Below are positions 20,066-37,551 of a stretch of DNA of 64,000 bases, one piece after another. The notes under the pieces are model-generated. The model did no database searches. It saw nothing but the letters and a program-made list of their open reading frames with translations, and was not told the origin of the DNA. The DNA comes from an uncultured Bacilli bacterium (GTDB taxonomy: Bacteria > Bacillota_I > Bacilli_A > RFN20 > CAG-449). The DNA is taken from the NCBI GenBank assembly GCA_944332075.1, contig CALVJL010000006.1, positions 30,862-94,861 of the forward strand, written 5' to 3'. The position numbers were made by a program, and so were the translations under genes. Position 1 is the stretch's first letter. The number at the start of each line of letters is the position of its first letter.

Positions 20066-20647
20066 ATGAAAAGAACATTATTAAAAATCGCTATGCCAGT
20101 TTTATTAGCAGCTTCTGCATTCACTATGTCAGCTTGCTCAACTGGGGGAGAGACACCAACATCATCAGCACCTGGTGAACAAGAAATCGCTTTAGGATCT
20201 TCTGTTCTTGGAAACTGGGATTACCGCAATGCTGATGGCGGAGATAAAACCGAAGAAGGTTATGCAGTTGAAGTTTATGTCGATACAGAAACAAAATTCC
20301 ACTTCACAGTCACCGCTTATTATGAAGATTTTGCTCCATCAGTCTTTACTTTTGAAGGTCAAATAACTTCTGTCGAACAAGGTTTAGCGCATTGCTATCC
20401 AGTATTTATGAATGCTTATCTTGATCATGGTGCAGTAAATGAAAGTGCAACTACTGCCGCTCAAACACAATACTCTACTTATCGTGGAGGTCTTGCAGAT
20501 CTTTATGAAGGACAACAAGAATTCCAAATCACCTTCCACAGATTAAGTAATGACGAGATGGATAATGGATATATCACTATCGACAATGCTGATATGGATA
20601 TTTCCTTTGGAGTCTTCACAGCAGTCTTAAACGCTTCTCAAGCATAA
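20066..20647 (+). CDS. lipoprotein
   Basis: Signal peptide with lipobox (LLAASAFTMSAC) and a GGAGA RBS. Confidence 0.5.
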   Translation: MKRTLLKIAMPVLLAASAFTMSACSTGGETPTSSAPGEQEIALGSSVLGNWDYRNADGGDKTEEGYAVEVYVDTETKFHFTVTAYYEDFAPSVFTFEGQITSVEQGLAHCYPVFMNAYLDHGAVNESATTAAQTQYSTYRGGLADLYEGQQEFQITFHRLSNDEMDNGYITIDNADMDISFGVFTAVLNASQA

Positions 20648-20675
20648 TTTACCCTATCACATAAATATCCTTTTG

Positions 20676-20722
20676 AAAAAAGTAGCTTACTAAATTCCCT
20701 CCAGTTAGGCTACTTTTTTTCT
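20676..20722 (+). terminator. intrinsic terminator
   Basis: agtagcttact ... agttaggctact stem followed by a T8 run. Confidence 0.55.
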
Positions 20723-20784
20723 TTATTGAAATATTTTTATTTGTCATTATTAATCATATAATGTCATTATCAAAGGAGTAAAAT

Positions 20785-21348
20785 ATGACTATTGAAGAAT
20801 ATATTAATTATATAAAAGAAAATCCGTATATTGAGGCAGATTCTGAAGCTCATAAAGTTATGCATAAAGCAGCCTTAGAAGCTCGAAAGATTACTTCTGA
20901 AATCAATAATTCTTTCCATGATGCTGAAGAATTAAGAGATTTATTCTCTAAGTTAATCGGTAAAAAAGTTGATGATTCTTTTGGTTTGTTTCCACCTTTC
21001 TATACTGACTTTGGAAAAAATATAACTATTGGAAAAAGAGTATTTATCAATGAAGGTTGCTGTTTTCAAGATCAAGGCGGAATTGAAATCGGTGATGATA
21101 CATTAATCGGACATCAAGTAGTCTTAGCTACAATCAATCACGATTTAGATCCTTATAAAAGAGGTAATATGGTAATTAAACCAATTAAAATTGGTAAACG
21201 CGTTTGGATAGGCGCACATGCTACTATTTTATCAGGAGTTACAGTTGGCGATAATTCAATAATTGCCGCGGGAGCTGTAGTAACAAAGGATGTTCCGGCA
21301 AATAGTGTGGTTGGAGGAGTTCCGGCAAAAGTCATAAAAACCCTTTAA
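20785..21348 (+). CDS. maa: sugar O-acetyltransferase (maltose/galactoside O-acetyltransferase family, hexapeptide repeats)
   Basis: Left-handed beta-helix hexapeptide repeats ([31 protein letters not shown]) and a Maa/LacA-type N-terminal region. Confidence 0.8.
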
Positions 21349-23112
21349 TTGAAAGCATTGAAAGCATTGAGAAAACATCTATTTTTTGCTAGATTAATAT
21401 ATAAATTAGAAGTATTTATGTTAGATAACTTAGAAATAAACGTCCATATTGCTTCAAATAAAAATATTGAGACTTCTAGTAAAAAGTCGATGTTTTTTGT
21501 TTTTTTTATTTGTCTAGTTATCGCATTTATATCAATTACTATCGTATCTAAATGTTCATTTCTTTATTCTTTTCACGATGGAAATGATGTTAACTGGTTC
21601 TTAACCATGGGCAGAGGTATGGTTGAAGGAAAAGTTCCTTACCGCGACCTTTTTGAGCAAAAAGGCATCTTATTATATATGCTTTTTGCTTTGAATTATC
21701 TTATCTGCGGTGACAACTTATATTTTATTTATTTCGTTGAAATAATTTGTGCAGCAGTATTTTTATTTTTAAGTTTTAAAATTATTAATTTATATTTACC
21801 TTATAAATCATCATTATTAGGCGTTTTAATTACTGCGATTATCGTTTTTACATCTAGAGCATTCTGGTGCGGAGGCGGTGAAGCAGAAGAATATTGCTTG
21901 CCTTTATTTACTTATGGAGTTTATATCTTTTTAAAAAGCCTTAATAAAAATAAAGATATCTCACTAATCGAAGGTTTTGTCTGCGGATTATTTGCCGGGA
22001 TAATCTTTTGGATAAAATACTCTATGTTAGTCTTTTATGCAGCTTTAGGCATCTGCATTTTCATCGACTTTTTCATTCAAAAGAAAGCGTCAAAAGCTAT
22101 TCTTTTCGCATTGTATTTTTTAATCGGTATGACGCTTATCAGCATTCCGATGATAATTTATTTAGGGATGAATCAAGCTCTTGACGATATGTGGAATATC
22201 TATATCTTATTCAATATTTTTGGCTATGCTGAAGGAAGAGATGTTTTAACTAGAGTAATAGAATTTTTTATCTCGCTAGGCCAAGTACCTTTAAATTTCT
22301 TCTTATATATAATGGTCGTCTTTAGCTTAATATATATGTGGAAAGTTTATAACGTTAATCTTCGTTATAAAATATACTATAGCTGTTTAACTCTTTCCAC
22401 ATTTTTAATTCAATGCTTAATTATGGGTAATATTGGTTATTACCATTTAGTTATAGGGACGTTTGTACCATTTGGAATAGTAGCTTTGCCATATTGTTTA
22501 GCAAATATCATCGCTTTCTTTAAAACTTTATTTGTTTCTAAAAAAGAAAAAACAGAACCTTTTAAAATCCGTTTTGAAATAGCTTATAAAAATTCCGATG
22601 ATGCAATAAATAAATTTTTAAATGATTTCAATGAAACAAAAGAGAAGAAAAATAATATAAAAGTAATCAGTATTTCCCTTTTCGCTTTAATATCAACAAG
22701 CTTATTATTCGGCAATAATACCATTGAGCTTTTCTATTCAAAATCTTATTATCCTCAATTTTTAGTCAAAGAGATTATTGAAAGTTACGGCAAAGAAGAT
22801 TATTCTCTTTTGACTTATAAAATGTTTGACCGCGGGTTTTACACCGTCTGCGATCAAACACCTAAGTTTTATTATTTCGCTCAAAATTTAGTTTCTGAAG
22901 AGAGTTATCCTCAATTATTTGAAGAACAAGAAAGCTATGTGATAAACGGCGAAGCTGATTTTGTTGTTACCGAATTATCCACATGGGAAAAAGAAAAAGC
23001 AGATGGTCAACCATTAGCTAAATACGAATATGTTGCTGATTTAAGTTACGTCTATATTAGAAGTAATTTAGATAGATTAGATCTTAAGCTTTGTTTATTA
23101 ACCATTAAATAA
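21349..23112 (+). CDS. polytopic membrane protein, GT39/PMT_2-like (ArnT-like) glycosyltransferase family; start uncertain
   Basis: Many TM helices. WFLTMGRGMVEGKVPYRDLFEQKG resembles the periplasmic loop of GT-C glycosyltransferases. The real start may be an internal ATG near 21490. Confidence 0.5.
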   Translation: MKALKALRKHLFFARLIYKLEVFMLDNLEINVHIASNKNIETSSKKSMFFVFFICLVIAFISITIVSKCSFLYSFHDGNDVNWFLTMGRGMVEGKVPYRDLFEQKGILLYMLFALNYLICGDNLYFIYFVEIICAAVFLFLSFKIINLYLPYKSSLLGVLITAIIVFTSRAFWCGGGEAEEYCLPLFTYGVYIFLKSLNKNKDISLIEGFVCGLFAGIIFWIKYSMLVFYAALGICIFIDFFIQKKASKAILFALYFLIGMTLISIPMIIYLGMNQALDDMWNIYILFNIFGYAEGRDVLTRVIEFFISLGQVPLNFFLYIMVVFSLIYMWKVYNVNLRYKIYYSCLTLSTFLIQCLIMGNIGYYHLVIGTFVPFGIVALPYCLANIIAFFKTLFVSKKEKTEPFKIRFEIAYKNSDDAINKFLNDFNETKEKKNNIKVISISLFALISTSLLFGNNTIELFYSKSYYPQFLVKEIIESYGKEDYSLLTYKMFDRGFYTVCDQTPKFYYFAQNLVSEESYPQLFEEQESYVINGEADFVVTELSTWEKEKADGQPLAKYEYVADLSYVYIRSNLDRLDLKLCLLTIK

Positions 23113-23142
23113 AAACCAATCAACTATTTACATTTTTTATAA

Positions 23143-24489
23143 TTATCTAAATATAAATGTTGTTAAATAATATGGATAAGTAATTATTTCCCCAATGCAT
23201 CCAACGTTTTGCGATGTCAACTTAACTAATTTTTTTACATTATATTTTTCTTTATCTTTTAAAACGGTTTTAGCCGACCGAGTATTACCTTTGTTTGCTT
23301 TGACTTCAATAAGAGTTACTTCACCACAATATTTAGAAATAAAATCTATTTCTAAGCCACTATCTTTATGAAAATAATACATTTTTTTGCCTAGTTTACT
23401 AAAAGCATCGGCTACTATATTTTCATATATCGCTCCTTTAGCTAATGATAACTTATTATTAATTATTAAATCTGGTACATCATCTTCTAACATTGAAATA
23501 TACAATCCACTATCATTTATAAATATTTTATAAATGCCTTCATCAACAAAAGAATCAAAAGGCAATTCAAGTGACTTCAAATTATAGCATTTTGAAATTA
23601 ATCCATAATCTTCAAGCCAATCTATTGCATTTTCATATTCACGACTTTTAGCATTTTTAGCGATAACTGAGTACTGAAACTTTTGATTTTCTTTTGCTAA
23701 TTGGCGTGGAATTGAATTAAAAGTTGCTAAAATTTTGGTTTTTGCAAACTGATCAACTTTAATTTCATAATCATCATTTAAATGAGTTCCAAAATCAGCC
23801 TCGAACCCCATCAAAATTTCCTTTTGTTTTTTTCTTACTTGATTAAAATCATTAGTCTTTATGTACGTATCTACAACTTCAGGCATTCCACCGATACATA
23901 TATATTTGTTAAATAATTCCAACATTTTATTGTGAATATATATTGGAATTTGTTTTGTTTCTTTTATACATTTGATTAAGATATCTATTACTTGTTTTTG
24001 AACTCCATTGGCCCATAAAAACTCTTCAAAATCCATGGGTTTCATCTCTAAATATTCCTCAAACCCTACAGGAATACCTCTTGATGGATATTTTGTTATT
24101 CTATAATTTTTAATTCCAAGTAATGAACCAGTACATATAACATCATATCTACCATCTAATGCAAAATATTTTAAAGATGCCCTAGCGTTAGGACAATCTT
24201 GTAGTTCATCAAATATTAATACGGTTTTATTAGGAATAAATTTAATATCTTTATATTTTATAGTCAAAGCAAATGTTATTGAGTCTATATCAAAATCACC
24301 ATTAAATAATTCTTGCAAACTAACATCTTTTCTAAAATCCAATTTAACAACTGAATCATAATTTTCTTTGGCAAAAGTCTCTACGATTGTAGTTTTTCCA
24401 ATTTGTCTTAATCCTTGAATGATTAAAGGTTTATGATTTGGTTCATTTTTCCAATTTAACATTTCATTATATATTTTTCGTTTGAACAT
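23143..24489 (-). CDS. AAA-family ATPase with DUF4143-type C-terminal domain
   Basis: Walker A (GLRQIGKTT) and Walker B (VLIFDELQ), with the typical architecture of DUF4143 ATPases. Confidence 0.7.
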   Translation of the reverse strand: MFKRKIYNEMLNWKNEPNHKPLIIQGLRQIGKTTIVETFAKENYDSVVKLDFRKDVSLQELFNGDFDIDSITFALTIKYKDIKFIPNKTVLIFDELQDCPNARASLKYFALDGRYDVICTGSLLGIKNYRITKYPSRGIPVGFEEYLEMKPMDFEEFLWANGVQKQVIDILIKCIKETKQIPIYIHNKMLELFNKYICIGGMPEVVDTYIKTNDFNQVRKKQKEILMGFEADFGTHLNDDYEIKVDQFAKTKILATFNSIPRQLAKENQKFQYSVIAKNAKSREYENAIDWLEDYGLISKCYNLKSLELPFDSFVDEGIYKIFINDSGLYISMLEDDVPDLIINNKLSLAKGAIYENIVADAFSKLGKKMYYFHKDSGLEIDFISKYCGEVTLIEVKANKGNTRSAKTVLKDKEKYNVKKLVKLTSQNVGCIGEIITYPYYLTTFIFR

Positions 24490-24776
24490 AATTATTACCT
24501 GCTGATTATAGTTTACACCTTTTTATAGCCTTTATCAAACAGCATTAACACTTTTTTCTACCATATTCTATTATAGATTTACACTTTTTTCGAACTTATT
24601 TTATGGTTATCTTGCACTTTTGCCAAAATTACTATCTCAATATTTTGAATATTAAATTCTAAAAACTTTATTACTAATCGTTCAAACAGTTTATGAATTA
24701 ATAAAAAATGCAAAAATATTGATAGTTAAAAAACAAAAAATAATTTTCGACAATGATATTCAGTACTTATTCTAAT

Positions 24777-26111
24777 CTATTTATTCAGTGAAATAATTCT
24801 AAGTATATCTTCGCCATATAATTCAAATTTCTTTTCGGCAAATCCATTAATAGCAAGTAATTCTTCTTTATTTGAAGGAAGTTTTTGCACTAATTCATTT
24901 AACTGCTCATTATTAAAAATCATATAGGGTTTAATATTATTTTTAACAGCCATAGCATAACGATATGCTTTTAATTTTTGATAAACTTTGTTTCCTTCTA
25001 AAGCTTCTTTTTCTTCAACTTCTTTTTTTGAATGAGAGACAATTATATTAACAATATCTTGTCCATATAATTCAAATTGTTTTTCATTCAAAATTTTATA
25101 ATTAGATAACGTTTTAATATCTAAAGGTCTTTTTAAAATTAGTTGTTCAAGTTGATCATTGTTGAAAATATAATAAGGCTTATAATTTAATGCTTTTGAT
25201 TTGTTTGTTCGATATTCTTTTAAGCTCTCATACAAATCATCATTTTGAGGTACTTCAACTAGTACTTCTTCTTTTACTGTTTCTTGAACTTCATCAGATT
25301 TAAATATCGTTTTTTCTTCAATTTTTGTTTCCATTAATTTTAAATGTAGTTTGCTAACATAATCTGTTTCGCGTTCAACGATATGTTCTGATATGAATTC
25401 AACAACTTTTTCGAGCTGTTTCTTTTTCATATCAAAATCAGCATACATTTTATAGTATGTACTTAATTTATTTGCAATCTGATCTGTCTTAATAACTATG
25501 TCTTGAATTTCTTTAGGTGCATAGGCTTTTTTAATCATAGCTTTACTATTAGAGCAGCAAATCAATGATAAAACTGGCAATTCTCTAATAAGTTTATTTG
25601 ATACTAATAAATTTCTTAGCAAATCGCAATGTTTTTTATTTTGCATAACAGGCGAATCCATTCCCTCTTTTTTATAAACATTACCTTTTGCATCAATAAA
25701 TGATCTGACAAAATTTCCTTCACTGTCAATAGTGATATTGCCATTTAATTTTTTTGCTTCAATAACACAGATAAACTTAGGTGTAACAATTACAAAATCC
25801 ATTTGAGCTGTTACATCGTTATATTTTAAGCAAATATCATGAAAAACATATCCTGGTATGTCATAAATATTTTTTAATTCATAAGCAACTTTAGATTCAC
25901 CTTGCAATCCAATGTTAACTAAATTTAATTCTTTTAAAACAATTTCCTTTTGGTCATCACCGACTTTTAAAAGCAAATTCTCTAATTGTTCTTTTTGCTT
26001 ACAAGTTCCTTCTTCAAATGGTTTAATAAAAACCAATTTTTTTGTTTCATTATTTTCAAAAATAAAATTAAGTAAACCCATAACGCTTCTCCCCTTTGTA
26101 TTTACTTTCAC
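24777..26111 (-). CDS. NERD (nuclease-related domain) protein with two tandem C-terminal HRDC domains
   Basis: N-terminal NERD-like segment (GESKVAYELKN...DFVIVTPKFICVIEAKK). It is followed by two paralogous HRDC-like repeats (LYESLKEYRTNKSKALNYKPYYIFNNDQLEQL... and VYQKLKAYRYAMAVKNNIKPYMIFNNEQLNEL...). Confidence 0.6.
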   Translation of the reverse strand: MKVNTKGRSVMGLLNFIFENNETKKLVFIKPFEEGTCKQKEQLENLLLKVGDDQKEIVLKELNLVNIGLQGESKVAYELKNIYDIPGYVFHDICLKYNDVTAQMDFVIVTPKFICVIEAKKLNGNITIDSEGNFVRSFIDAKGNVYKKEGMDSPVMQNKKHCDLLRNLLVSNKLIRELPVLSLICCSNSKAMIKKAYAPKEIQDIVIKTDQIANKLSTYYKMYADFDMKKKQLEKVVEFISEHIVERETDYVSKLHLKLMETKIEEKTIFKSDEVQETVKEEVLVEVPQNDDLYESLKEYRTNKSKALNYKPYYIFNNDQLEQLILKRPLDIKTLSNYKILNEKQFELYGQDIVNIIVSHSKKEVEEKEALEGNKVYQKLKAYRYAMAVKNNIKPYMIFNNEQLNELVQKLPSNKEELLAINGFAEKKFELYGEDILRIISLNK

Positions 26112-26147
26112 TTAAAACTTTACATCATGTTCATTAATATTTTAAGT

Positions 26148-26744
26148 TTAATTCTTTCTTAATATTACATTAAGCCATTTTTCATTCCCTCTATTAGTTC
26201 TTACATCAAAACTTAGCTTAATATCTTCAATAATTAAATCTGTTCCTTCAACATATTTTTTTATGGAGTTTTCATCTAAATCAATATTATATCTTCCATT
26301 TCTAACGCCTTCAAAATTACCATACTTAAAAGAGCAGTACATTATGCCGTCTTTCTTTAACGCTACTGCACATTTTTCAAATGCATTAGATAATTTTTCT
26401 TTATTAATATGTAATAACGATGCACAAGCCCATATACCGTCAAATTTATCTTTAAACGTCATTTCATTAGCTTCTTGACAATATATGTTAGTAAATCCTT
26501 TTTCTTTTAATAAATCACAAAATTTTTCAACAGGATCAATACCGTATACTTCATAGCCTTTGGAAACAAAATACTCAAAATCACGTCCACTTCCAAAGCC
26601 TAAATCCAAAATTATCGCATTAGGTTTATTTAAATGTGATTCAAAAAACTGATACATCAAAGACATGTCACATTGATAAGTGCTATCGATAAATTCTTTG
26701 TAATGGTTTACGTAATATTCTTTAGTTTTATCCATATAAATCAC
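26148..26744 (-). CDS. small class I SAM-dependent methyltransferase
   Basis: Motif I LDLGFGSGRD. 198 aa, TehB/UbiE-like size. Confidence 0.65.
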   Translation of the reverse strand: MIYMDKTKEYYVNHYKEFIDSTYQCDMSLMYQFFESHLNKPNAIILDLGFGSGRDFEYFVSKGYEVYGIDPVEKFCDLLKEKGFTNIYCQEANEMTFKDKFDGIWACASLLHINKEKLSNAFEKCAVALKKDGIMYCSFKYGNFEGVRNGRYNIDLDENSIKKYVEGTDLIIEDIKLSFDVRTNRGNEKWLNVILRKN

Positions 26745-27725
26745 CTATTTAAAATCATATCTGCAGCTATTATAGAATTTATCAACATAATTATTCTCAA
26801 TTGCTTCTTCCATAGAAATTTTTAACTTTTCATCATTTAATAAATTAACCAGTTTTTTATTTCTCTCTTTTAGTCTTTCAATTACATCTTCTGAAGGAAC
26901 AATATTACTTTTTTTACTATTATTTGATTTAGTGGTTAATACTAAATTCCAAATATCATCAGAATACATAAAACTCCATGGGATAACATGGTCTACTGAT
27001 ATATCATCTGAAGCCAATTCTTTTCCGGTATAAAAATCAATAGGTTTATTGCCAGTGATTAAAATAAGAGACGAAATAAACTTTTTTAAATTATTTCTTC
27101 TAATTTCAGATTGACTGGCTCCTGCAACTTTTTTATTAATCTTAGGCGCGCTATTGTATTCTTCTAATAACTGAGCCCATTTATAGTTAAGAATTATTGT
27201 TAAAATATCTGCATAATCTATTAAATCTTTTGAATTATCTTTATTTATAAATATCTTATTATCTTTTAGATAATAGATATCACTCACTCTGCCATCTAAA
27301 TTTAAAAAGTATTTGATTGGATTTGCCTTTAGATTTACTCCTATTTTAGAAATACAAGCATCATATTCTTTTAATTTTTTCTTTCTGATTTCTGTTCTAG
27401 CTAAGTCAAACCAAATCGGATATGTAGATTCTGTTAATTTTTGATAAATAGATATTAGTTTTTTTACTTCTTCTAAAATGATAGCTTTATTTTTGCTAGC
27501 AGGTCCAGCTTGTTTAAGTTTGAAAAAATAATATTGATTCCAATAATATTTCAAAACATTCTCTGAAATATCATATAAATCAACGTAAACTTCATCATCA
27601 ACATCATGAAAAAGCTTGTTTTTTAAGCATTCAATGACACTTCTTCCAAAAGCGAGTTTATATGTTGTGACATTTTTCATTTTTTCAATGATATTTATCC
27701 ATTCATTTATGTATTTTGGAATCAT
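26745..27725 (-). CDS. HNH endonuclease-domain protein
   Basis: DHVIPWSF...NLVLTTKSNNSKKSN fits a His-Me finger (HNH) motif. Its stop abuts the start of the methyltransferase gene. Confidence 0.5.
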   Translation of the reverse strand: MIPKYINEWINIIEKMKNVTTYKLAFGRSVIECLKNKLFHDVDDEVYVDLYDISENVLKYYWNQYYFFKLKQAGPASKNKAIILEEVKKLISIYQKLTESTYPIWFDLARTEIRKKKLKEYDACISKIGVNLKANPIKYFLNLDGRVSDIYYLKDNKIFINKDNSKDLIDYADILTIILNYKWAQLLEEYNSAPKINKKVAGASQSEIRRNNLKKFISSLILITGNKPIDFYTGKELASDDISVDHVIPWSFMYSDDIWNLVLTTKSNNSKKSNIVPSEDVIERLKERNKKLVNLLNDEKLKISMEEAIENNYVDKFYNSCRYDFK

Positions 27726-27972
27726 AAATACCCCGTATTAAATATAATTATTTGTATAAATATTATATAACGAAGTATATTTTTTTGAAATATGGATGAT
27801 ATAAACGTGAGAAAATATATTAAAACATTTTAAAAATGTATAATTTAATTCTAATAAAAATTTTTAGATTTTTTATAAATATATGGAATGGAAGAAAAGG
27901 TTTTGTATTTGGTGATTTTCTTGTCAATATTTTTAAAATATCAGCTATTGCTCAATAACAAAAAAGTATTTT

Positions 27973-28704
27973 TTAATTATCTCCTTCATTTATTGTATTT
28001 TTATAAGCATTTATAAATTTATCTCGATAATTGATGCCATTGATTATAAAATCGAACTTATTTTCATTATGAAATTCACAAATAAGAATATCTAAAAGTT
28101 TTGCCGCTATCAAAATTAAAGAATGACTATAAACTATTGCATTATTAATATCAGAAGCAAGATTGATAAAACAAATAACTCCATGAGTCCATAGATTTAA
28201 TTCTTTTTTCCAACTTTGAATAGCGTCATCTTCTTGGATTTTAGACAATTTGATTAACGAGTAGATTCCATACCCTTCATCTAATGATTTTAACCAACCA
28301 TAGTCTAAAAAATTTAAAGGATTTTCTTTATTTGGATTAAACTTTCCATTATAATGCTTCCTTATTAATTTATTTTTATCATCATTATTTCTTATCTCAA
28401 ATCTAAACTTCTGATGTTCTATATAATCATCTAATAATTCTTTATGCATTTCTAAAATCTTAATAGTTGCAATTTGTTCAATGGCCATTCTAAGAATGAC
28501 ACAGGCTTGCGAAATTAACAAACCATTGCCAAGCAACAAACAAAAACTTTTTATAGAATTAAAAGACTCATAATAAAGACTGTAAAGATATTTATTTTTA
28601 TCAAAATATTTTGTAAAGATTATGTCTGGCATCTCATCACATAATTCAATCATATATTCCAAAAGTAGTTTGAATTTTTCAATTTGTAGTTCCTTGTCAT
28701 ACAT
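27973..28704 (-). CDS. hypothetical protein
   Basis: 243-aa ORF in the accessory island. No recognisable motif. Confidence 0.35.
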   Translation of the reverse strand: MYDKELQIEKFKLLLEYMIELCDEMPDIIFTKYFDKNKYLYSLYYESFNSIKSFCLLLGNGLLISQACVILRMAIEQIATIKILEMHKELLDDYIEHQKFRFEIRNNDDKNKLIRKHYNGKFNPNKENPLNFLDYGWLKSLDEGYGIYSLIKLSKIQEDDAIQSWKKELNLWTHGVICFINLASDINNAIVYSHSLILIAAKLLDILICEFHNENKFDFIINGINYRDKFINAYKNTINEGDN

Positions 28705-28982
28705 ATTTTTTTACCTTATTAAATCGTTATCTTATTTTTCCAATAATAGAAATATTCGGCTTATAATAATTATATGTTGTAGTTTGGTTTCACTTACTTG
28801 TTCTTTTAAGATATCGAAGAAAATTTAGAAAATCCAGTTGAAGAATTGATAATTTGGTAATTAAGTTACATAATTTTCATATTTTAGAACTTCTTGTGAA
28901 CATATTCTGATACAACCAATCAATATATTCTTATCTTTTTTATTATTTAAGTTATAAAGACTGTGCAACGATTAAATTTAAG

Positions 28983-30344
28983 CTATAGTCCTTTATATGA
29001 AATCATCCATTCGACCCATGCTTTTATAGTCGACGCTCTTCTACGAATTGTTGCTGGAGCAAGATTAATTTTCATATGCTCAATTTCATTAACAATGTAC
29101 TCTATATTAACATTTTTATTTTTAGATATAGCATCATTATAAACATCTGAAAATAATTTGTTTTCAATTAGTTGATTGTAGATATCTTCTTTGATTTTAT
29201 TTTCATCATCATAGATTGCAGTGATTCGTTCTGTATATTCTGGCAACTGATTGATGAATCTCAAATATTGTAATGCTTGCAAATAATAAAGAACTTGTCT
29301 CTCTGTTGTAAGATTCAGTTTTTCCATAATTTGTTTTTTATCTTTTAATAATTCGTTATCACAAAGCATAGCAAATTTAATAATTCTTTCCATGCTATTT
29401 GCTTGAGGAAGAATATTTTGCATACCCAAAATAATTACTTCACGTCCAGATTGTCTACCATCGCCATTTGAATTAATGCTTCTTAATGTAGACAATTTTT
29501 CAAAGAGATAAAATACTTTGTATTTAGGATCTTGATTAAACAAATTAATCACTTTTTCTGTTGCATTATTACTAATAATTACTGTAGCTCCTCGGTTTAT
29601 TGCTTTATCTAAGCTTTTCTTTAATTTTTCAAAATCTTCAAAAGTAAAACCTGACATTTGATATTTAGTAAAGCCATCGTCATCTTCATAATCATACGGA
29701 GGATCAGCATAAATAATATCTCCTCGCTCTGCTTTATCTATTGCTTTGTCATACGTTCCACACATTATGCAAATATTGTTTTGTTTATCCGAAAAATAAT
29801 TATGAATTTCTGTTAGATTATCTTTATCACAAATCAAGGGATTTTTATATCTTCCAATAGGTGTATTAAATTGTCCTTTACTATTAACTCTGTATAATCC
29901 GTTATAGCATGTTCTATTTAAAAAGATCATCCTAGCGGCCCGTTCTACATCAGTTTTGTTGGAAGGCCATCCATCATCACGATCATATTGTCTTACTTTG
30001 TAATAATAATTCTCGGCACCATCTTCATCTTCTGGATTATTTAACTTGGAATGATATTCTTGTTGATATTTAGCTAATAAATTAATTAAATCCTTATATG
30101 AATCACTTTTAATAACCGAATAAGCATTCATCAATTCGGAATTCAAATCATTGATAATAGCCTTTTGTGGATGTAAGTCAAAAAAGACGGCACCGCCGCC
30201 TAAAAATGGTTCAATGTATGTAAAGTCATTTGCTTTATCACCTTCATCATCGTTGTTAAATGACTTAGACGCTTCAATATATTCCTTAATTTTTGCTAAT
30301 ATTTGCCTCTTTCCACCAGCCCATTTTACAAATGGTTTCATCAA
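28983..30344 (-). CDS. Dam-family (alpha-class, D12) N6-adenine DNA methyltransferase with a roughly 150-aa C-terminal extension
   Basis: N-terminus KPFVKWAGGKRQ, motif I EPFLGGGAVFF, motif IV IIYADPPYD. At 453 aa it is far longer than the usual 270-300-aa Dam. Confidence 0.85.
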   Translation of the reverse strand: MMKPFVKWAGGKRQILAKIKEYIEASKSFNNDDEGDKANDFTYIEPFLGGGAVFFDLHPQKAIINDLNSELMNAYSVIKSDSYKDLINLLAKYQQEYHSKLNNPEDEDGAENYYYKVRQYDRDDGWPSNKTDVERAARMIFLNRTCYNGLYRVNSKGQFNTPIGRYKNPLICDKDNLTEIHNYFSDKQNNICIMCGTYDKAIDKAERGDIIYADPPYDYEDDDGFTKYQMSGFTFEDFEKLKKSLDKAINRGATVIISNNATEKVINLFNQDPKYKVFYLFEKLSTLRSINSNGDGRQSGREVIILGMQNILPQANSMERIIKFAMLCDNELLKDKKQIMEKLNLTTERQVLYYLQALQYLRFINQLPEYTERITAIYDDENKIKEDIYNQLIENKLFSDVYNDAISKNKNVNIEYIVNEIEHMKINLAPATIRRRASTIKAWVEWMISYKGL

Positions 30345-30370
30345 AATACCTCTTCGAAAAAATTATAATT

Positions 30371-31117
30371 CTATTTCTTTATAGTATTATAATATTCAAT
30401 CATCTTATCATAAACTAGTGTTTCTATATCTTTTTCTTCAATTACATCAAGAAATTTAACACTACCAATTCTAGAAACATATTTTGCAATACTTGGGTAA
30501 AAAGAAGCATTTTCAAATCCAATTTTTTCAACCGCTTTCTTTTCTCCTGATATAATTCCTCTAACCAGGTGCTTTTCTGATGAATAAACTCTCCAAGTTA
30601 AGTTTCTATATCTTTCAGGCAATTCAACAATCCACTTTGTGAGTTCAAATTTATCTTTTCTACTTTCATCGATAGTTAATGAAACTCTAAAAAAGCACCT
30701 GGAAAGAACACCAAACATTAAACCTCTTCTTATACCTTGTCCAAACATCCAGTGATCTCTAACTGTTGAAACACCTTTAATCTCCATCATCGATTTTGTA
30801 ACTTTATAAAATTTTTCAAAATATAGCCAAAGCCAAAACTTTTCATTAGTTATAATAAATGTAGGAAGATTCTTTAACGCATTATATAGAGTAACACTAT
30901 TTTGAAAATCTAATTTTTTATCTGAAGATTCTTTGTTTTCTTCAAGCACAAAATCTTCAATTTCATATTTTTTCTCAACAAATGGATAGTCTATAAATTC
31001 ATCTAATACCCATGAATTATCATCATTGTCTTTGATTTTATTAGCAATAACACCTAAGTTTCTTTTTAAATGTTCGTATGCTCTATCTGTCATCATTTTT
31101 ATATATATCTTACTCAT
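30371..31117 (-). CDS. hypothetical protein (operon partner of the Dam methyltransferase and GHKL ATPase)
   Basis: 248 aa with no recognised motif. It overlaps the upstream gene by 8 nt. Confidence 0.4.
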   Translation of the reverse strand: MSKIYIKMMTDRAYEHLKRNLGVIANKIKDNDDNSWVLDEFIDYPFVEKKYEIEDFVLEENKESSDKKLDFQNSVTLYNALKNLPTFIITNEKFWLWLYFEKFYKVTKSMMEIKGVSTVRDHWMFGQGIRRGLMFGVLSRCFFRVSLTIDESRKDKFELTKWIVELPERYRNLTWRVYSSEKHLVRGIISGEKKAVEKIGFENASFYPSIAKYVSRIGSVKFLDVIEEKDIETLVYDKMIEYYNTIKK

Positions 31118-32033
31118 TATCAGAATCCCCTTCTTTGTTGTTTTTTACAACATCTAAAATATTACATAGAGATGTTGCAAAAGGTTTTCCAAGTATTTCT
31201 TGTGCTATTTGAATTGGTGACCATTCAAGTATGTCATCTTTAGTTAATTCATGATTCTTTAATTGATTATATCGATATTTAATTGAATAAAACCATCCAT
31301 ATTGTGTACATATATCTTCAATATCACTAAATGTATCTAACTCAGTTAATTTTTTTATAGTTGTAAAAGCTTCTGTTAAAACTGGCACTAATAACATACT
31401 GAAAAACACTTCCTTAAAGCCAACAGAATTATATACAACTTTATAATTTTGATATTCATTTCTTGATAGGTAGATGTTAATTTTTTTGCCACCTTCATAT
31501 TTAACTTCATACATTCCATCTTCTTCAATATTATTATCAAAAGTAATATTAAAAATTGATTTTGCAACATTTTCTTCAGTCTCTAAGTGTTCGAATTTGG
31601 CAATAAAGCCATCATTGATAGCTATTAAATCATACTTATCGATTTCAAACTCCATTCCCTTGTATTCATCGCTGAATTCGTCTGAAAATAAAATAAAGTT
31701 TTCTTTAGCATATGCAAAGGAAGAAATTTCTACTTTACCATCAAAATCGTTTTTATCAAGCAGTATATTATTTCCATCTTCAGTGGATAATTCGTATGTT
31801 CTTCTAAAAACTGTGTACGAACATTCAATGACACATTTAACACCTATTAAACCATTTCTAAATAAATCTAAAATATAGTTACTATCTGTTTTAAATTTTA
31901 TATTTCTTAACAAAATACCATTTTTAGAATCAACACGTTCAAAAGATAATTCAAATATCTTATTAAAATATGATGAATTGATAATATTGTGATTGAGCAC
32001 AGGATATGGGAATAGCTTACTTCTGACTTGCAT
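31110..32033 (-). CDS. hypothetical protein (operon partner of the Dam methyltransferase and GHKL ATPase)
   Basis: 307 aa with no recognised motif. It overlaps the GHKL gene by 17 nt. Confidence 0.4.
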   Translation of the reverse strand: MQVRSKLFPYPVLNHNIINSSYFNKIFELSFERVDSKNGILLRNIKFKTDSNYILDLFRNGLIGVKCVIECSYTVFRRTYELSTEDGNNILLDKNDFDGKVEISSFAYAKENFILFSDEFSDEYKGMEFEIDKYDLIAINDGFIAKFEHLETEENVAKSIFNITFDNNIEEDGMYEVKYEGGKKINIYLSRNEYQNYKVVYNSVGFKEVFFSMLLVPVLTEAFTTIKKLTELDTFSDIEDICTQYGWFYSIKYRYNQLKNHELTKDDILEWSPIQIAQEILGKPFATSLCNILDVVKNNKEGDSDNE

Positions 32034-33966
32034 AAATTCTTACCTCACTTGCAAAATAATCATTTTGATTAGTTTTAACATCAAGATTAATTCTCTGCCC
32101 GTCTATAATATGAAATGGGCCATAATCTTTATTACTTATTGAAGAAATAGGTACTCCGTTACATGTCATACTTAATATTTCAATATTTTCTTTATTAGTT
32201 ATTTCATCTTGAATCATTATTAAATTCAAATAACAATTTTCATACGATTTTGGTGCAATAAAACTAATTCTGTACTTTCCTGATTTTTTATCTAAAGCTA
32301 TTACTTTATAACGAATTCCAGCAAGGTTTACTTTTTGCATCACTATATTGTCGCCATCTTTAACTCCGGAAGTTTCGTCTCCTTCGCCATATCCGCCACC
32401 ACTAGTATCATTGTGTCCTTCCGGATGTAAAGTATCTTCACCTTCCTCTATAGAACTTCCAACATCTGGTCGTACACCTTCGCCATCATCTTGTTCAATA
32501 TAAGCATTTCTTTCAATTTGTTTAACTTCTTTAAATGGCGAAACTTCAATTTCTTCTAAACTATTATTTTGCTTAATAGCATTATTTGTTCCTTCAATAT
32601 CAGAGACGTCTGGTAAAAATTCCCCAGCCCCATATGGATCAATTGTATTAGTATCGTCTGTCTTAAAACATTCTAAAACATATTTATCAATTTGAGATTT
32701 AATATCAGAAATGATAAAAGCCATTTCATCACGTTCAGGTTTTGGTAATCTCTTTGGTTCCCAACTATTGTGTTGTGGATTTTCAATATTTCTTAATTTT
32801 TTACCTAATTGATCTTCTCCAATAATCAATAATGCTGACACATTGAAGTTCCTTGCCAATGGATAATCAAAAATCTTCATGTATGGATATCTAATAATTG
32901 AACATTTATGAGTTGCAATCCATTTATCATCTTCTGATAACACCATAACATATAGCTCTGCCTTACCATAAGGTGTATCAATATCAAAAGTTTTAACATT
33001 ATCCATGTCATTAGATAAAATCTTATATTGTGATAATAAATAAGGTTTTTTCTTATAGTTGACAAATGTTTGATTGTTAATAACATCCAAAAGTGTATCT
33101 TTTTTTATTTCTATATTGGAAATCTTAATAATTAAATTATTTTTAAATATGCTTACCATAAATGATTCGAGTACACTATTTAATATTTCAATTGACCAAT
33201 CATTTTCTTTATTTAGACCCAATATAAAAATATCTGTGCCGTATTGTTCTGATCTTCTAAAAAAATCACAGTCCAAAGAGCATAAATCAGTCAAAGGATC
33301 ATTTATTTCATTTCTTGTGTAATAGCCTTTTCCTTGAGTATAATCTCTGTTTGGATTTTCAACATCATCATCACAATAACCAGAAATTAAGTCGGCTACA
33401 CCAACTGAACCTTTTTCATTATCTTTTGTTATAGTTGAGTAAAAAATCATTGATAACTTAGATAGCAAAAATGCGGCATTTTTACCAACACCTTTTGAGC
33501 CACCAGCATTATCATTAGATTTATCTGAAACGCCTGTAGATCTTGTTAATGCCAAAAAGTTGTTATTTTGTCCATCATTAACTCTACTAATCCCAGTTAA
33601 TCCCGTTGTATTAAAATCACTAATTCTTAAACACTCAATTTTAGGGCAATTAAGATAATTAAGTATCTTGTTGTATTCCTGATAGAATTTTGGTTGAGAG
33701 TCTTTCCAATATTCCATGCATCTTCTAATTGCAGTTTTATAACCACCAATATCTGGAATATCATTTGGATTAATCTTAAACAATTTAAATTCTACAGTCA
33801 CTGGTTCTTCATCAGAAAATCTAGCATCTATTGAATTTTGTATAATTTCACGACCGAAGTTACCAAAAGGATTCTTTTTAAATGTTTCTGTATCACCAGA
33901 AGTCATTCCAGTTCTCTCACCATGATTACTAGGAGCAAATCTCCATTTTAAATTATCTTTTTCCAT
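32017..33966 (-). CDS. GHKL-superfamily ATPase, MORC/Hsp90/MutL-like
   Basis: N-terminal Bergerat-fold motif I ETFKKNPFGNFGREIIQNSIDA, near-identical in pattern to the Hsp90 ETF...REL(I/V)SNASDA motif. Glycine-rich SKGVGKNAAF follows. The remaining roughly 400 aa are uncharacterised. Confidence 0.6.
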   Translation of the reverse strand: MEKDNLKWRFAPSNHGERTGMTSGDTETFKKNPFGNFGREIIQNSIDARFSDEEPVTVEFKLFKINPNDIPDIGGYKTAIRRCMEYWKDSQPKFYQEYNKILNYLNCPKIECLRISDFNTTGLTGISRVNDGQNNNFLALTRSTGVSDKSNDNAGGSKGVGKNAAFLLSKLSMIFYSTITKDNEKGSVGVADLISGYCDDDVENPNRDYTQGKGYYTRNEINDPLTDLCSLDCDFFRRSEQYGTDIFILGLNKENDWSIEILNSVLESFMVSIFKNNLIIKISNIEIKKDTLLDVINNQTFVNYKKKPYLLSQYKILSNDMDNVKTFDIDTPYGKAELYVMVLSEDDKWIATHKCSIIRYPYMKIFDYPLARNFNVSALLIIGEDQLGKKLRNIENPQHNSWEPKRLPKPERDEMAFIISDIKSQIDKYVLECFKTDDTNTIDPYGAGEFLPDVSDIEGTNNAIKQNNSLEEIEVSPFKEVKQIERNAYIEQDDGEGVRPDVGSSIEEGEDTLHPEGHNDTSGGGYGEGDETSGVKDGDNIVMQKVNLAGIRYKVIALDKKSGKYRISFIAPKSYENCYLNLIMIQDEITNKENIEILSMTCNGVPISSISNKDYGPFHIIDGQRINLDVKTNQNDYFASEVRIYASQK

Positions 33967-33980
33967 AATTTATCACCTTT

Positions 33981-34202
33981 CTATAATTCAATTTTCTTAT
34001 TTTTCTTTTCATTATTTTTTAAAAGTATTTTTTTGCTTTTTTTCAACTCTTCCTCGAGTTCTTTAAACATATTTTCTATTTGACTATCTGAATATTCATA
34101 GAAAGATGTGTTTGTAAGATTTGTCAGTTGTTTTATCAAAGCAATGATTTTTGAGACCCTATTTTCTGAAATACGTTTAAAATTAGATTTTTTACTTTCC
34201 AT
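33981..34202 (-). CDS. small charged/coiled-coil protein, hypothetical
   Basis: 73 aa, K/E-rich. First gene of the apparent operon. Confidence 0.3.
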   Translation of the reverse strand: MESKKSNFKRISENRVSKIIALIKQLTNLTNTSFYEYSDSQIENMFKELEEELKKSKKILLKNNEKKNKKIEL

Positions 34203-34307
34203 TTGTTATACCTCAATTAGATTATAATATTGGAAAATATAAGAAATCAATAATAGATTGATAATATTTTGGTAATATTTTTAAATTATTTTAAATTTAC
34301 ATATGTT

Positions 34308-35051
34308 TTATTTTAATCTTTGCCTATAAAAATCATCAAGCAAACTCAAAGAAATACGATAATTTTTCAAATTTTTTGGTTTATTTATTAATATACGTTT
34401 CAATTGTTCAATAATTTCATCGCGCATCTTTGAAAAAATATAATAATCATCTAAGACAAGTATATTGTCATATCCTTTCTTTATATATAATTTTGGACAT
34501 ATTTTTTGATTAATTGCTATTAACTTTTGCGCAATAAAATTTATTTCCTCTTGTGAGTATGAATGCGTAAAACTTACGTACTCTTTAAAATCTTTTATTG
34601 TCTTTTCTTCATAGTAATCAAGTACTTCTCTTTTTTCACCTTTAGGCATCCGATGAATATACAATTCACATGTAGAAAGATCGACATTCCATTCTTTAAG
34701 CAAAAGCTGAATTGTCCAAAGCGAATGAATCGATGTATGATTAACATTTATAAAAAGTCCATAATCAAACTCCTTGTAATTACTCTTTTGCACTTCAGAA
34801 AAAACATCTTGTCTTCCCCAATCATTTTTTATATTCAAAAGTTCTTCTTTTGATTTAGGTGACAGCTTATTTAAGTATTTTGCCAAGGAATATATCATGT
34901 TGTTATAGGATCCAACTTTATGATAGTAAGTCCCAACTTTTATTGAATAAGGTGAAGAAAATTCAAAGCCAAACTCTCTAGTAGATAAGTCAACTTTATA
35001 GACTCTTTTACTGCCAATATATTTTATTTTGTATTTTTCTTCTATTGTCAT
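34308..35051 (-). CDS. hypothetical protein
   Basis: 247-aa ORF. No motif recognised. Confidence 0.35.
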   Translation of the reverse strand: MTIEEKYKIKYIGSKRVYKVDLSTREFGFEFSSPYSIKVGTYYHKVGSYNNMIYSLAKYLNKLSPKSKEELLNIKNDWGRQDVFSEVQKSNYKEFDYGLFINVNHTSIHSLWTIQLLLKEWNVDLSTCELYIHRMPKGEKREVLDYYEEKTIKDFKEYVSFTHSYSQEEINFIAQKLIAINQKICPKLYIKKGYDNILVLDDYYIFSKMRDEIIEQLKRILINKPKNLKNYRISLSLLDDFYRQRLK

Positions 35052-35457
35052 AATTTTCCCACTTTTCTTTTAATTATCACTTTTTAATAATGATATTTAC
35101 CCCACTATTGATTATTACTTAAATTCATTTTACCACTGCTATATCATATATCAACATGAGTTTCTTATATATTTTATTTATAAGCATTTAGTTTTAGACC
35201 ACCAAATTTACACATAGATTGATGCATTTTTTACTATACATTTTTTCAAAATGTGTGAATTTTCTAATAATCAAGCGCTGTAAATATTGATATAAAAATG
35301 CAGTTTTACGGTGAAAATGTCAGTTTTCTACAATTATTTCAACAAGTACAATATATTTATATTATAGAACATTGAAATTTGTTTTTGCTGAAGTTTAAAT
35401 TTATTATTAAAAATTATTATCAACAATATATGTACATAGAAGATATCAAAATTTATA

Positions 35458-36162
35458 TTAATTGCTTTGCCTTTTTAATTTATTTGCACATAGCACTTTC
35501 ATTACCGATTTATCATCAAATATCATATCGTTTGTATTATTTAAGCAATCAATATAATCATTCTTTATTTCTTCATATAATTCTTGATCAAATAGTTGAC
35601 AAAAAGAATTTGGTTTCCCATCTTCAATAACATCAAAAATAACAGCTAAATTACCATCGTCATCATAACAAAGATAAGAATCTTCTAGTTTTGGTAAATT
35701 ATTTTCTTTTGCATACTCTTCATACTGTTTTGCCATAATATATCTATAAATTGAAGCTATACGATGATCTAAATTATTCTCTAAAGCCACAACTTTTTCT
35801 CTAGCTAAAATTGTTGTAGTAGCACCTGTTTTTATATATAAAGATGTATCTATGTCTTTATCATTATAGTAAAAATTATAGACATCACTTAAAGATCCAA
35901 ATTGAACTATAAAGTGTTTCTTTTGATTTATATATTTTAATGGATAAGGTACAAAATGGATATGTCCGCAATAAGGGCATTTAAAAATAAACAATTCATC
36001 AAAGATAAACTTTTTTCTTAAATCATAGTCTTTATCCCCATCAATTAAATCATACACTTTAACAAAGAAGTTTCTCTTACATTCCTTACATGTCATCATT
36101 TTTATTTTACTAATCGACATTTTATTCTCCTTCATTATTTTTACATCTTTTTTTAAAGTCAT
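35458..36162 (-). CDS. zinc-ribbon protein (CxxC...CxxC), hypothetical
   Basis: CKECKRNF...CPYCGH near the N-terminus. Its 5' end overlaps the vWA gene by 41 nt. Confidence 0.45.
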   Translation of the reverse strand: MTLKKDVKIMKENKMSISKIKMMTCKECKRNFFVKVYDLIDGDKDYDLRKKFIFDELFIFKCPYCGHIHFVPYPLKYINQKKHFIVQFGSLSDVYNFYYNDKDIDTSLYIKTGATTTILAREKVVALENNLDHRIASIYRYIMAKQYEEYAKENNLPKLEDSYLCYDDDGNLAVIFDVIEDGKPNSFCQLFDQELYEEIKNDYIDCLNNTNDMIFDDKSVMKVLCANKLKRQSN

Positions 36163-36781
36163 TATCTATTGTTTTTCTCCAAGCACTTGAGAGCTTTTTA
36201 TCAATTCTTAAAGAATCAATAGCAAAGCCTAATGCACAATAATTTAATGAAACCCCGCTGCTATCATTTTTATAATTGACCGCTTGTTTTTTATCAATTC
36301 CTAATCTAGATGCTTCTTCTTCTAAATCAATGTTTGCTCCGATAAAAATAAACTCATAACCATTTTTCTCTTTTGATTCTGATATCATCTTTTTAATAGT
36401 GGGGTAATCATATTCTTTTGAAGAATTTTCCATTCCGTCTGTAACAATCATGAATAATGTCTTACTTGGACGTTCTTTCTCTGTTAATGAGCTCTGCACA
36501 TTTTTAATATGATTAATTGTTTCGCCAATGGCATCTAGCAAGGCTGTGCAGCCAGATACTCGGTATTCTTTATTTGTTAATTCTTTTATATCTTTGATAT
36601 TGACTCTATCATCAATAACATTTATCGAATCATTAAAAAGTATAGTCGAAACAATAGTATCTAAATTATTTTTTTGCTTTTCAATTAAAGAATTAAAACC
36701 GTTAATCGTTTCTTTTTCTAGCCCAGCCATTGATCCGCTTTTATCAATGATAAAAACTAATTCAGTTAAATTTTCGTTCAT
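36122..36781 (-). CDS. von Willebrand factor type A (vWA) domain protein
   Basis: MIDAS motif DKSGSM (DxSxS), with the conserved T (TALLDAIG) and D (VTDGMEN). Confidence 0.75.
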   Translation of the reverse strand: MNENLTELVFIIDKSGSMAGLEKETINGFNSLIEKQKNNLDTIVSTILFNDSINVIDDRVNIKDIKELTNKEYRVSGCTALLDAIGETINHIKNVQSSLTEKERPSKTLFMIVTDGMENSSKEYDYPTIKKMISESKEKNGYEFIFIGANIDLEEEASRLGIDKKQAVNYKNDSSGVSLNYCALGFAIDSLRIDKKLSSAWRKTIDNDFKKRCKNNEGE

Positions 36782-36954
36782 GATTTACTCCTTTTAGATA
36801 GTAAAACTATCTATTATGATATTAGTTAAAATCAGACTGAATTTGGTAACTTTGAAAACGACTTTGATATAAGTTAAATCATTATTAAAACTAACTTTTT
36901 CATAAAAAATGCAACCAGACCTAAATCTGATTGCTTATAAAAAAATAACTCTTT

Positions 36955-37437: not shown

Positions 37438-37551
37438 ATTATATTCTCCCCTTATTCATTATAAATATAATTACTTTATATTTCTCATATAAATTATAAT
37501 CAAAGAAATACAAAAATATTGTAAGATTTTTGATTAATTCTTGTATTACTA

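Follow-up and report, generated by a model that had tools for sequence, protein, structure and literature searches.

Do the three tightly packed genes at positions 24777-27725 of this DNA form one defence system, or do they belong to separable units that share a genomic island? The window analysed here is the whole stretch of 64,000 nucleotides (nt) from contig CALVJL010000006.1 of an uncultured Bacilli bacterium (assembly GCA_944332075.1). The three genes on its minus strand encode an HNH-family protein, a class I S-adenosylmethionine (SAM)-dependent methyltransferase (MTase) and a protein with a NERD nuclease domain and two HRDC domains (NERD-HRDC). The initial annotation, made from the letters of the sequence, had taken them for a single candidate nuclease-based module. 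The reading to which we lean, at slightly better than even chances, is that two separable cassettes stand side by side in a defence island. In cassette A (26148-27725, two genes) an HNH effector would be paired with a nucleotide-directed accessory, meanwhile cassette B (24777-26081, one gene) would supply a structure-specific nuclease. Both are probably co-transcribed at this locus.

Linkage of the HNH and methyltransferase genes

The HNH-MTase pair is a conserved unit, often translationally coupled, widespread and uncharacterised. The 98 loci with HNH homologs, drawn from genomes, metagenomes and assemblies, fell into 42 lineages after dereplication at 90% identity. An MTase gene was present on the same strand within 150 nt of the HNH gene in 20 of the 42 lineages, usually downstream, and it often overlapped the HNH gene by 4-30 nt. 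The partner was a PRA-PH/MazG-like nucleoside triphosphate (NTP) pyrophosphohydrolase of about 110 amino acids (aa) in 10 lineages, a HIT hydrolase in five and a PF12643 MazG-like gene in two, and only one lineage with adequate flanks was left without any partner. In the neighbour-joining tree of the HNH proteins the type of partner followed the clades (MTase, PRA-PH and HIT), which indicated co-evolution. A natural HNH-MTase fusion was identified (P0135), and P0335 (512 aa), the first 272 residues of which matched the N-terminal domain and the HNH domain, may be a second one. In addition, many MTase homologs were located on contigs shared with HNH homologs. Nothing specific was found in NCBIfam or PADLOC as a named family for the partners or for the third genes that follow the pairs.

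The HNH protein

The HNH protein (open reading frame (ORF) 26745-27725, minus strand, 326 aa) was composed of an unnamed N-terminal domain (N-domain; aa 1-205, nt 27111-27725) and a Cas9-type HNH_4 nuclease domain (aa 230-277, nt 26895-27038). The latter was recognised by Pfam at 1e-12, with 48.3 bits against a cut-off of 22, which placed the protein among the HNH/His-Me finger nucleases, and D245-H246, N260, N269 and N274 were invariant in 27 homologs. The HNH domain of SpCas9 was matched by profile at 8e-11, and the Cas9 HNH domain was also the sole match in the PDB of the AlphaFold2 model (predicted local distance difference test score (pLDDT) 81), through the HNH part only. The HNH motif reported by the initial annotation thus had the catalytic residues of a true HNH domain. 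RefSeq named the homologs only as 'HNH endonuclease domain-containing protein'.

The N-domain of about 200 aa had no match in Pfam, NCBIfam, PADLOC or the PDB. In the HNH family, which comprised proteins of about 320 aa in 676 clusters at 90% identity, the first 200 residues or so were conserved to the same degree as the nuclease. A profile of the N-domain alone recovered at least 484 clusters at 50% identity, mostly of the N-domain plus HNH form. Some of the proteins were 550-1800 aa long and carried no HNH domain (among P0320-P0469), and their remaining parts matched in Pfam and PADLOC only a Sigma70_r4-like helix-turn-helix (HTH) or MTaX1, a proposed discriminator of modified DNA in restriction-modification (R-M) contexts (PMC10853773). 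Since the N-domain heads varied architectures, it was regarded as a mobile module, and this mobility would fit a targeting or sensing role.

The motifs TYKLAWG, YYWNQ and NYKWxQLLE were observed in the N-domain. A domain shared with the C-terminus of the helicases described below was first noticed by eye ('sYK..ll.a..E ... I..i....FY'). It was unsupported by comparison of hidden Markov models with hhalign (E = 0.13 then 0.012, probability 0.4-3.6%), and no helicase was present among the top 150 N-domain matches; it was kept as a lead only.

The methyltransferase

The MTase (26148-26735, minus strand, 195 aa; maximal ORF 26148-26744, 198 aa) matched Methyltransf_11 and Methyltransf_25 of Pfam (6e-14 and 3e-13). 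Its family was large, with at least 947 clusters at 90% identity, and strongly conserved, with a mean column identity of 63%; motif I (DLGFGSGRD), D67, DGIWACASLLH, SFKYG, R145, D152, DxR and WxN were invariant. None of 25 homologs carried the [DNS]PP[YFWH] or PC[QN] motif of DNA methyltransferases, no DNA-MTase match was obtained in Pfam, and 195 aa left no room for a target-recognition domain. The closest solved relatives were small-molecule methyltransferases, of unknown or phosphoethanolamine specificity. By motifs, Pfam matches, size and nearest structures alike, the enzyme fell outside the DNA methyltransferases of classical R-M systems, in agreement with the initial annotation, which had taken it for a small-molecule or RNA methyltransferase rather than a classical DNA methyltransferase. 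The SAM-binding part of it matched mad2 of PADLOC at 6e-16 (mad2 positions 281-405 of 492).

The same MTase family was also coupled translationally to an MTES_1575-REase/ResIII helicase (REase, restriction endonuclease) of about 830 aa in L168 and L170, and a related helicase, about 30% identical over its length, was elsewhere flanked by HIT and PRA-PH genes. At least two nuclease effectors thus draw on the same small stock of exchangeable accessories, all of them nucleotide-directed enzymes. This speaks against classical R-M and for an accessory whose substrate is a nucleotide-like small molecule or the end of a nucleic acid.

At the two helicase loci (L168, 2498-6089; L170, 2531-5591) the MTase overlapped the end of the helicase gene by 26 nt. 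In L168 a Macro-domain gene followed the MTase, and an SRA-NUDIX-NOV_C fusion was located nearby.

The NERD-HRDC protein

The third gene (24777-26081, minus strand, 434 aa; maximal ORF 24777-26111, 444 aa) encoded a NERD domain (about nt 25557-25910) which was assigned to PF08378 at 5e-18, with 66.1 bits against a cut-off of 22.1, and hence to the PD-(D/E)xK nucleases. D82, Q93, D95, E108 and K110 were invariant in 26 homologs. Two HRDC copies, HRDC1 (nt 25041-25247) and HRDC2 (nt 24789-24992), were recognised as two stretches by PF00570 (8e-34, 115.8 bits). They shared 30 of 68 residues, and the duplication could still be seen in the DNA as a direct repeat of 45 nt, 80% identical and 249 nt apart. 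HRDC2 was 31% identical to the HRDC domain of E. coli RecQ, and the RecQ HRDC was matched by phmmer at 5e-9. The AlphaFold model (mean pLDDT 86.8) was aligned by Foldseek to the RecQ HRDC structure 1wud with a target-normalised template modelling score of 0.85 and a root mean square deviation of 0.7 Å, and its nuclease core weakly resembled the PD-(D/E)xK nucleases Can2, VC1899 and Bax1.

Both domain assignments of the initial annotation were therefore sustained by profile search, but its view that a NERD domain joined to duplicated HRDC domains is unusual has to be given up. The NERD plus HRDC architecture was present in 79 clusters at 90% identity in Firmicutes/Acholeplasmatales and gave 459 hits among 185,579 GTDB species genomes, two HRDC copies were found in 30 of the 79 loci examined, and many free-living Bacillaceae and Paenibacillus carried it on their chromosomes. 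It is thus uncharacterised, yet common. A NERD nuclease has been validated as a defence effector in HEC-02 (bioRxiv 10.1101/2024.01.29.577857).

Separability of the two cassettes

Among the 79 NERD-HRDC loci the trio was shared only with L001, a metagenome-assembled genome (MAG) of the same species, and it recurred independently only in the diverged contig L092. A full-length HNH homolog was located within about 700 nt of NERD-HRDC in only three of the 79 loci (in a fourth, L048, it lay at 4.7 kb), and an MTase was near it in only one. The members of the wider network which could be found near NERD-HRDC were ResIII, DUF3427 and DNA2-like helicase-nucleases, PRA-PH, HIT and NUDIX enzymes and the HNH family, and 61 of the 79 loci had none of these partners. 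No conserved synteny was found around NERD-HRDC, most loci being without a conserved neighbour, and most HNH-MTase loci in turn were without NERD-HRDC.

The gene that follows the HNH-MTase pair was different in each of the closest relatives outside the species. It encoded a SLFN-type helicase in L175 (HNH protein 80% identical), a DUF4379/DUF2726 protein in L171 (76%) and a 290-aa unknown protein in L172 (55%). In more distant pairs the position was held by a 472-aa protein with a PD-(D/E)xK-like motif, by NUDIX and a SauUSI-like Type IV enzyme, or by HsdM, AbiEi or BrxL. From the other side, the NERD-HRDC ortholog of L183 was 86% identical and had only non-coding DNA upstream (509 nt, up to the contig end), and that of L002 (68% identical) was located in a metabolic context with no adjacent HNH-MTase pair. 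The SLFN-type helicase was common to L183, where it came after NERD-HRDC, and L175, where it came after HNH-MTase, which clearly shows that cassettes have been shuffled between closely related bacteria. The linkage proposed by the initial annotation was thus upheld for the HNH-MTase pair, with its 20 lineages and its fusions, and was not supported, in the form proposed, for the trio.

Organization of the locus

The three packed genes were found on the minus strand as the initial annotation had described them, all co-oriented, with gaps of 0 nt and 36 nt between the maximal ORFs. By inspection, the likely start of the MTase was ATG 26735, with a ribosome-binding site (RBS; AGGTGA) which overlapped the HNH stop codon and a spacer of 9 nt, and the likely start of NERD-HRDC was ATG 26081, which stood behind the RBS AAGGGGAG and 66 nt past the MTase stop codon. 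An AT-rich region of 247 nt preceded the HNH gene and contained a promoter-like site, TTCAAA-16-TATAAT (27762..27789, minus strand), located about 37 nt before the start of HNH. This site is a candidate operon promoter by its match to the consensus, and promoter-type matches were not above shuffled expectation in the AT-rich DNA of the locus. No terminator-like hairpin was found between the three genes in the locus sequence, and no credible Rfam match to a regulatory RNA or riboswitch was obtained in the leader or the intergenic regions. Flanking inverted or direct repeats which could mark a mobile cassette were looked for, and only low-complexity AT-rich matches were obtained.

The trio was located in a segment of low GC content (24-29%, against 32-36% in the flanks), which was bounded by a membrane protein gene (21349-23112) and a tRNA U5-methyltransferase gene (38999-40357). 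The three genes were flanked by the PADLOC candidates PDC-S01 and PDC-M33 A/B/C, the latter with a Dam-DUF7226 methylase. PDC-S01 corresponded to an AAA_14-DUF4143 ATPase (23143..24489, minus strand), a context gene outside the unit with its own upstream region of 287 nt; it was not beside HNH-MTase elsewhere, save for an unrelated occurrence in L170. The conspecific MAG L001, about 94% identical in nucleotide sequence, was used as the comparison strain for variability of the island. Positions 20034-27863, including all three genes and the PDC-S01 ATPase, were conserved in L001, meanwhile 27863 to about 39024 was replaced there by a different segment of about 5 kb, and the island was therefore regarded as a strain-variable hot spot. 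The breakpoint at 27863 fell just upstream of the HNH promoter region. With these flanks, the low GC content and the strain variability, the placement in a defence island given by the initial annotation was well founded.

The variable part 27863-39024 of the window carried a 243-aa unknown gene, the Dam-DUF7226 methylase (28983-30344), PDC-M33 C/B/A (30371-33966) and CpXC, VWA and HTH genes, and the replacement segment of L001 carried a second AAA_14-DUF4143 paralog (39% identical). Another strain indel, 14604-20034 (5.4 kb, absent from L001), encoded a GH3 glycosidase and a protein resembling GHKL histidine kinases. An imperfect tandem direct repeat of 33 nt (24544-24609, 73% identity), a possible operator or promoter element, was observed in the intergenic spacer ahead of the PDC-S01 gene.

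Genomic neighbours in other bacteria

HNH cassettes elsewhere adjoined genes of Wadjet, CRISPR-Cas, AIPR, Type I and Type IV R-M systems, AbiE and BrxL. In L175 (1-5736) a complete Wadjet operon (JetABCD) directly preceded the HNH-MTase pair, and in L167 (1-3676) the pair came directly after a CRISPR-Cas adaptation/RAMP module. Proteins of the AIPR/AbiU-like type that end in an HRDC domain recurred beside HNH cassettes (L134, 1425-3527; L161, 9162-11333; L171, 11898-12981), and the addition of HRDC to defence proteins appears to be common in such islands. Directly upstream of the HNH gene an EVE-like protein of 130 aa was encoded in L080 (1677-2069; Pfam EVE, E = 9e-4) and a DUF6979 protein of 132 aa in L045 (11088-11486), and no homology was found between these two genes.

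Distribution in viruses and plasmids

No full-length HNH homolog was found in 2.9 million viral contigs of IMG/VR or in 50,697 phage records (INPHARED GenBank). NERD-HRDC gave only four weak hits in IMG/VR, and the INPHARED phage collection gave one partial hit. With no full-length HNH match and such weak viral hits for NERD-HRDC, a phage or prophage origin was rejected. A few HNH homologs were located on plasmids of Priestia and Paenibacillus, one of which had a gene annotated 'nucleoside triphosphate pyrophosphohydrolase' immediately downstream.

Proposed mechanism

The architecture of the proteins, the conservation of their motifs, the linkage of the pair, the exchange of its partners and the separability of the cassettes were shown by the analysis; the role in defence, the gating and the substrates of the MTase and of NERD-HRDC are inferred. 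In cassette A the HNH protein would be the effector, its HNH domain cleaving DNA, and the N-domain would most likely target or gate the nuclease. The translationally coupled MTase would be a dedicated accessory of it. Because the MTase has neither the motifs of a DNA methylase nor a target-recognition domain, and because PRA-PH or HIT enzymes replace it in sister HNH clades, the accessory would have as its substrate a free small molecule of nucleotide type, or else the end of a nucleic acid, instead of marking host DNA. Whether MTase, PRA-PH or HIT, it might remove or mask a nucleotide-type ligand and thereby restrain or tune the nuclease. Two variants could be envisaged. In a guard or toxin-antitoxin-like variant the ligand would activate the nuclease and the accessory would set the threshold, as the strict one-to-one, co-evolving and translationally coupled pairing suggests; a toxin-antitoxin-like pair of nuclease and neutraliser would also agree with the coupled translation, the fusions and the co-evolution of the partners. 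In a Type IV-like variant the nuclease would attack modified DNA and the accessory would sanitise modified precursors, and here the hints are contextual, namely the neighbouring DUF3427/NUDIX, SRA-NUDIX and EVE-like genes and the MTaX1 fusion.

In cassette B the NERD nuclease would be tethered to nucleic acid by the two HRDC modules. The HRDC domains of RecQ and BLM offer an analogy for single-stranded or branched DNA, and on this analogy NERD-HRDC would most likely cut branched or single-stranded replication and recombination intermediates of invading DNA.

A bolder version can be entertained as rather doubtful speculation. The HNH family would be a new class of immune nucleases, in which the N-domain senses a nucleotide-derived small molecule and the dedicated partner (the MTase here, a PRA-PH/MazG-like pyrophosphatase or a HIT hydrolase in sister clades) keeps this ligand below threshold. 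On infection the nuclease would be set free, for example by SAM-degrading enzymes of phages or by a rewiring of nucleotide pools, and NERD-2xHRDC would be an optional second effector on replication intermediates.

Several observations weigh against the two-cassette reading. In L092 the NERD-2xHRDC, HNH and MTase genes were again tightly packed, in another gene order, with gaps of 18 nt and 2 nt and identities of 42-47%. In L020 and L045 a full-length HNH homolog adjoined NERD-HRDC, with PRA-PH in place of the MTase. Cassettes of the same class were located within 5 kb of NERD-HRDC in 18 of the 79 loci, several only 66-114 nt away on the same strand, so that NERD-HRDC may work together with them and be more than a neighbour; the lack of a detected terminator between the MTase and NERD-HRDC genes points the same way. 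For the mechanism itself, the partners, one of them a methyltransferase and two of them hydrolases, could well have substrates of different classes, and the N-domain has no recognisable fold relative, which makes its targeting or gating role a guess. The metagenome sample was redundant and gut-biased, and the basis for all three families is computational. Taking separability and recurrent proximity together, NERD-HRDC was treated as an autonomous cassette with a recurrent but facultative affinity for cassettes of this class.

Alternative explanations

One alternative is a single three-component system, in which HNH and NERD-HRDC are dual nucleases and the MTase is a regulator or immunity factor, possibly with NERD-HRDC as an optional co-effector. 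The common strand, the spacers of 9 nt and 66 nt free of a terminator, the recurrences in L092, L020 and L045 and the 18 loci with nearby cassettes speak for it, as does L185, where an unrelated HNH_5 protein was encoded 31 nt upstream of a 50% identical NERD-HRDC. It is nonetheless an unlikely account, because the closest pairs outside the species carry other third genes, the 86% and 68% identical NERD-HRDC orthologs have no adjacent HNH-MTase pair, and the two families are mostly met apart. A classical R-M pair, with an MTase that methylates host DNA, an HNH protein that cuts unmethylated foreign DNA and an unrelated NERD-HRDC, would account for the order of nuclease and MTase, the translational coupling and the occasional fusion, all of which resemble Type II/IIG systems, and also for the match to mad2 and the location among R-M genes. 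An MTase without DNA-methyltransferase motifs, Pfam match, target-recognition domain or structural relatives of that kind, which hydrolases replace in sister clades, makes this improbable. Moreover, a column identity as high as that of the MTase is atypical of R-M methyltransferases, which diversify in specificity, and PRA-PH and HIT hydrolases cannot mark DNA.

The pair might also be housekeeping genes of RNA or nucleotide metabolism or repair, and NERD-HRDC a DNA-repair nuclease, which only chance had brought into a variable region. Phage collections contain practically no members of either family, NERD-HRDC resides in many chromosomes of free-living Bacillaceae and Paenibacillus, HRDC is typical of repair and processing enzymes such as RecQ and RNase D, and Hen1-type RNA-repair methyltransferases have a similar fold. 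Yet genes of this kind would hardly be spread as patchily as 459 hits among so many species genomes, without conserved synteny around NERD-HRDC, consistently among defence genes and with homologs on plasmids. In addition, the trio adjoins the strain-variable part of the low-GC island, though it is itself conserved between both strains. Chances for such a housekeeping role are accordingly slim. The last alternative, foreseen by the initial annotation as a way in which its module could fail, is that the HNH gene is a degenerate homing endonuclease left by an intron or intein. HNH domains are common in such enzymes, and weak PHROG matches to phage HNH and endonuclease VII families were obtained (7e-6 to 6e-4), but the gene stands by itself behind an upstream region of its own, no split host gene is present at its flanks, it has a conserved 200-aa N-domain in at least 484 clusters and a co-evolving partner gene, and the viral and phage collections hold no full-length homolog. 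This explanation is effectively refuted.

Relation to known systems

Type IV HNH enzymes (McrA, ScoMcrA and TagI-type) are likewise single polypeptides with a reader or targeting domain plus HNH and occur in defence islands. The likeness extends to the fusion of the N-domain with MTaX1 in other proteins and to the SauUSI type of DUF3427 plus NUDIX, as HNH cassettes of the present family adjoin SauUSI-like DUF3427 plus NUDIX (PADLOC mREase_IV, PDC-S07), an SRA-NUDIX fusion and an EVE-like gene. However, the N-domain matches no reader (SRA, EVE/PUA, SBD or DUF3427) by sequence or fold, and Type IV enzymes need no dedicated co-evolving small enzyme; the HNH protein is likened to them by architecture and context. 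Type II R-M systems with HNH restriction enzymes such as KpnI and a cognate DNA MTase share the coupled nuclease and SAM methyltransferase and the occasional fusion. They differ from the present pair in that the MTase here lacks the catalytic DNA-MTase motifs and target-recognition domain, is highly conserved and is replaced by hydrolases in sister clades, whereas a classical R-M nuclease always goes with a protective methyltransferase; here PRA-PH took that place in 10/42 and HIT in 5/42 lineages.

The use of a NERD/PD-(D/E)xK nuclease with the (D/E/Q)xK signature as a defence effector is known from HEC-02 (ABC ATPase plus NERD) and from Nhi-type nuclease-helicases, and NERD-HRDC often adjoins superfamily 1 or 2 helicase-nucleases. 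Unlike in those systems, NERD is here fused to two HRDC domains, no ABC ATPase partner was found and the PADLOC match was only at domain level. HRDC is an accessory nucleic-acid-binding module in RecQ, RNase D, DpdF and AIPR, as it would be here, and it also ends AIPR/AbiU-like and DpdF defence proteins; in contrast to RecQ and RNase D, no helicase or exonuclease core is present and the catalytic part is the NERD nuclease. Septu (PtuA ABC ATPase plus PtuB HNH) did not fit, since PADLOC gave Cas9 HNH-domain hits and no PtuB, and the ATPase next to the trio is of the AAA_14-DUF4143 type (PDC-S01), which HNH genes elsewhere do not have as a conserved neighbour. For MADS (mad1-8) only domain-level hits were obtained, NERD reaching 29 bits against MAD6 with a cut-off of 460, and no other mad genes were present at the locus. 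The HNH and NERD-HRDC families matched no system in PADLOC.

His-Me finger 'Group 23' of Jablonska et al. (2017) consists of unannotated HNH-type proteins next to MazG genes, with no function assigned (PMC5714182). The HNH protein described here belongs to Pfam HNH_4, which is Group 1 in that classification, and its family identity with Group 23 was not established; the MTase-linked clade and partner swapping are not described there. In the searched literature, no paper combined NERD, HRDC and defence and none dealt with DUF6979; only related domains were found in the DefensePredictor paper, the paper on Hma-embedded systems and the His-Me classification. No description of the MTase-linked clade, of partner swapping or of the N-domain was found in it.

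Biological significance

The HNH N-domain and MTase families are large, highly conserved and common in gut and environmental Firmicutes, and they have no Pfam or NCBIfam name beyond generic domains, no PADLOC model and no mention in the searched literature. Since the HNH-MTase pair takes only about 1.6 kb, it is directly testable by cloning. If the bolder sensing version were true, the MTase form would be without precedent among defence systems, its nuclease being gated by methylation not of DNA but of a small molecule. The exchange of methyltransferase, pyrophosphatase and HIT hydrolase as partners points to control through nucleotide chemistry instead of DNA marking, a logic which is not known from restriction-like systems. 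Beside it, NERD-HRDC is a widespread candidate effector, and the presence of the same accessory enzymes on a helicase-nuclease suggests that the pair may belong to a broader, unrecognised class of modules.

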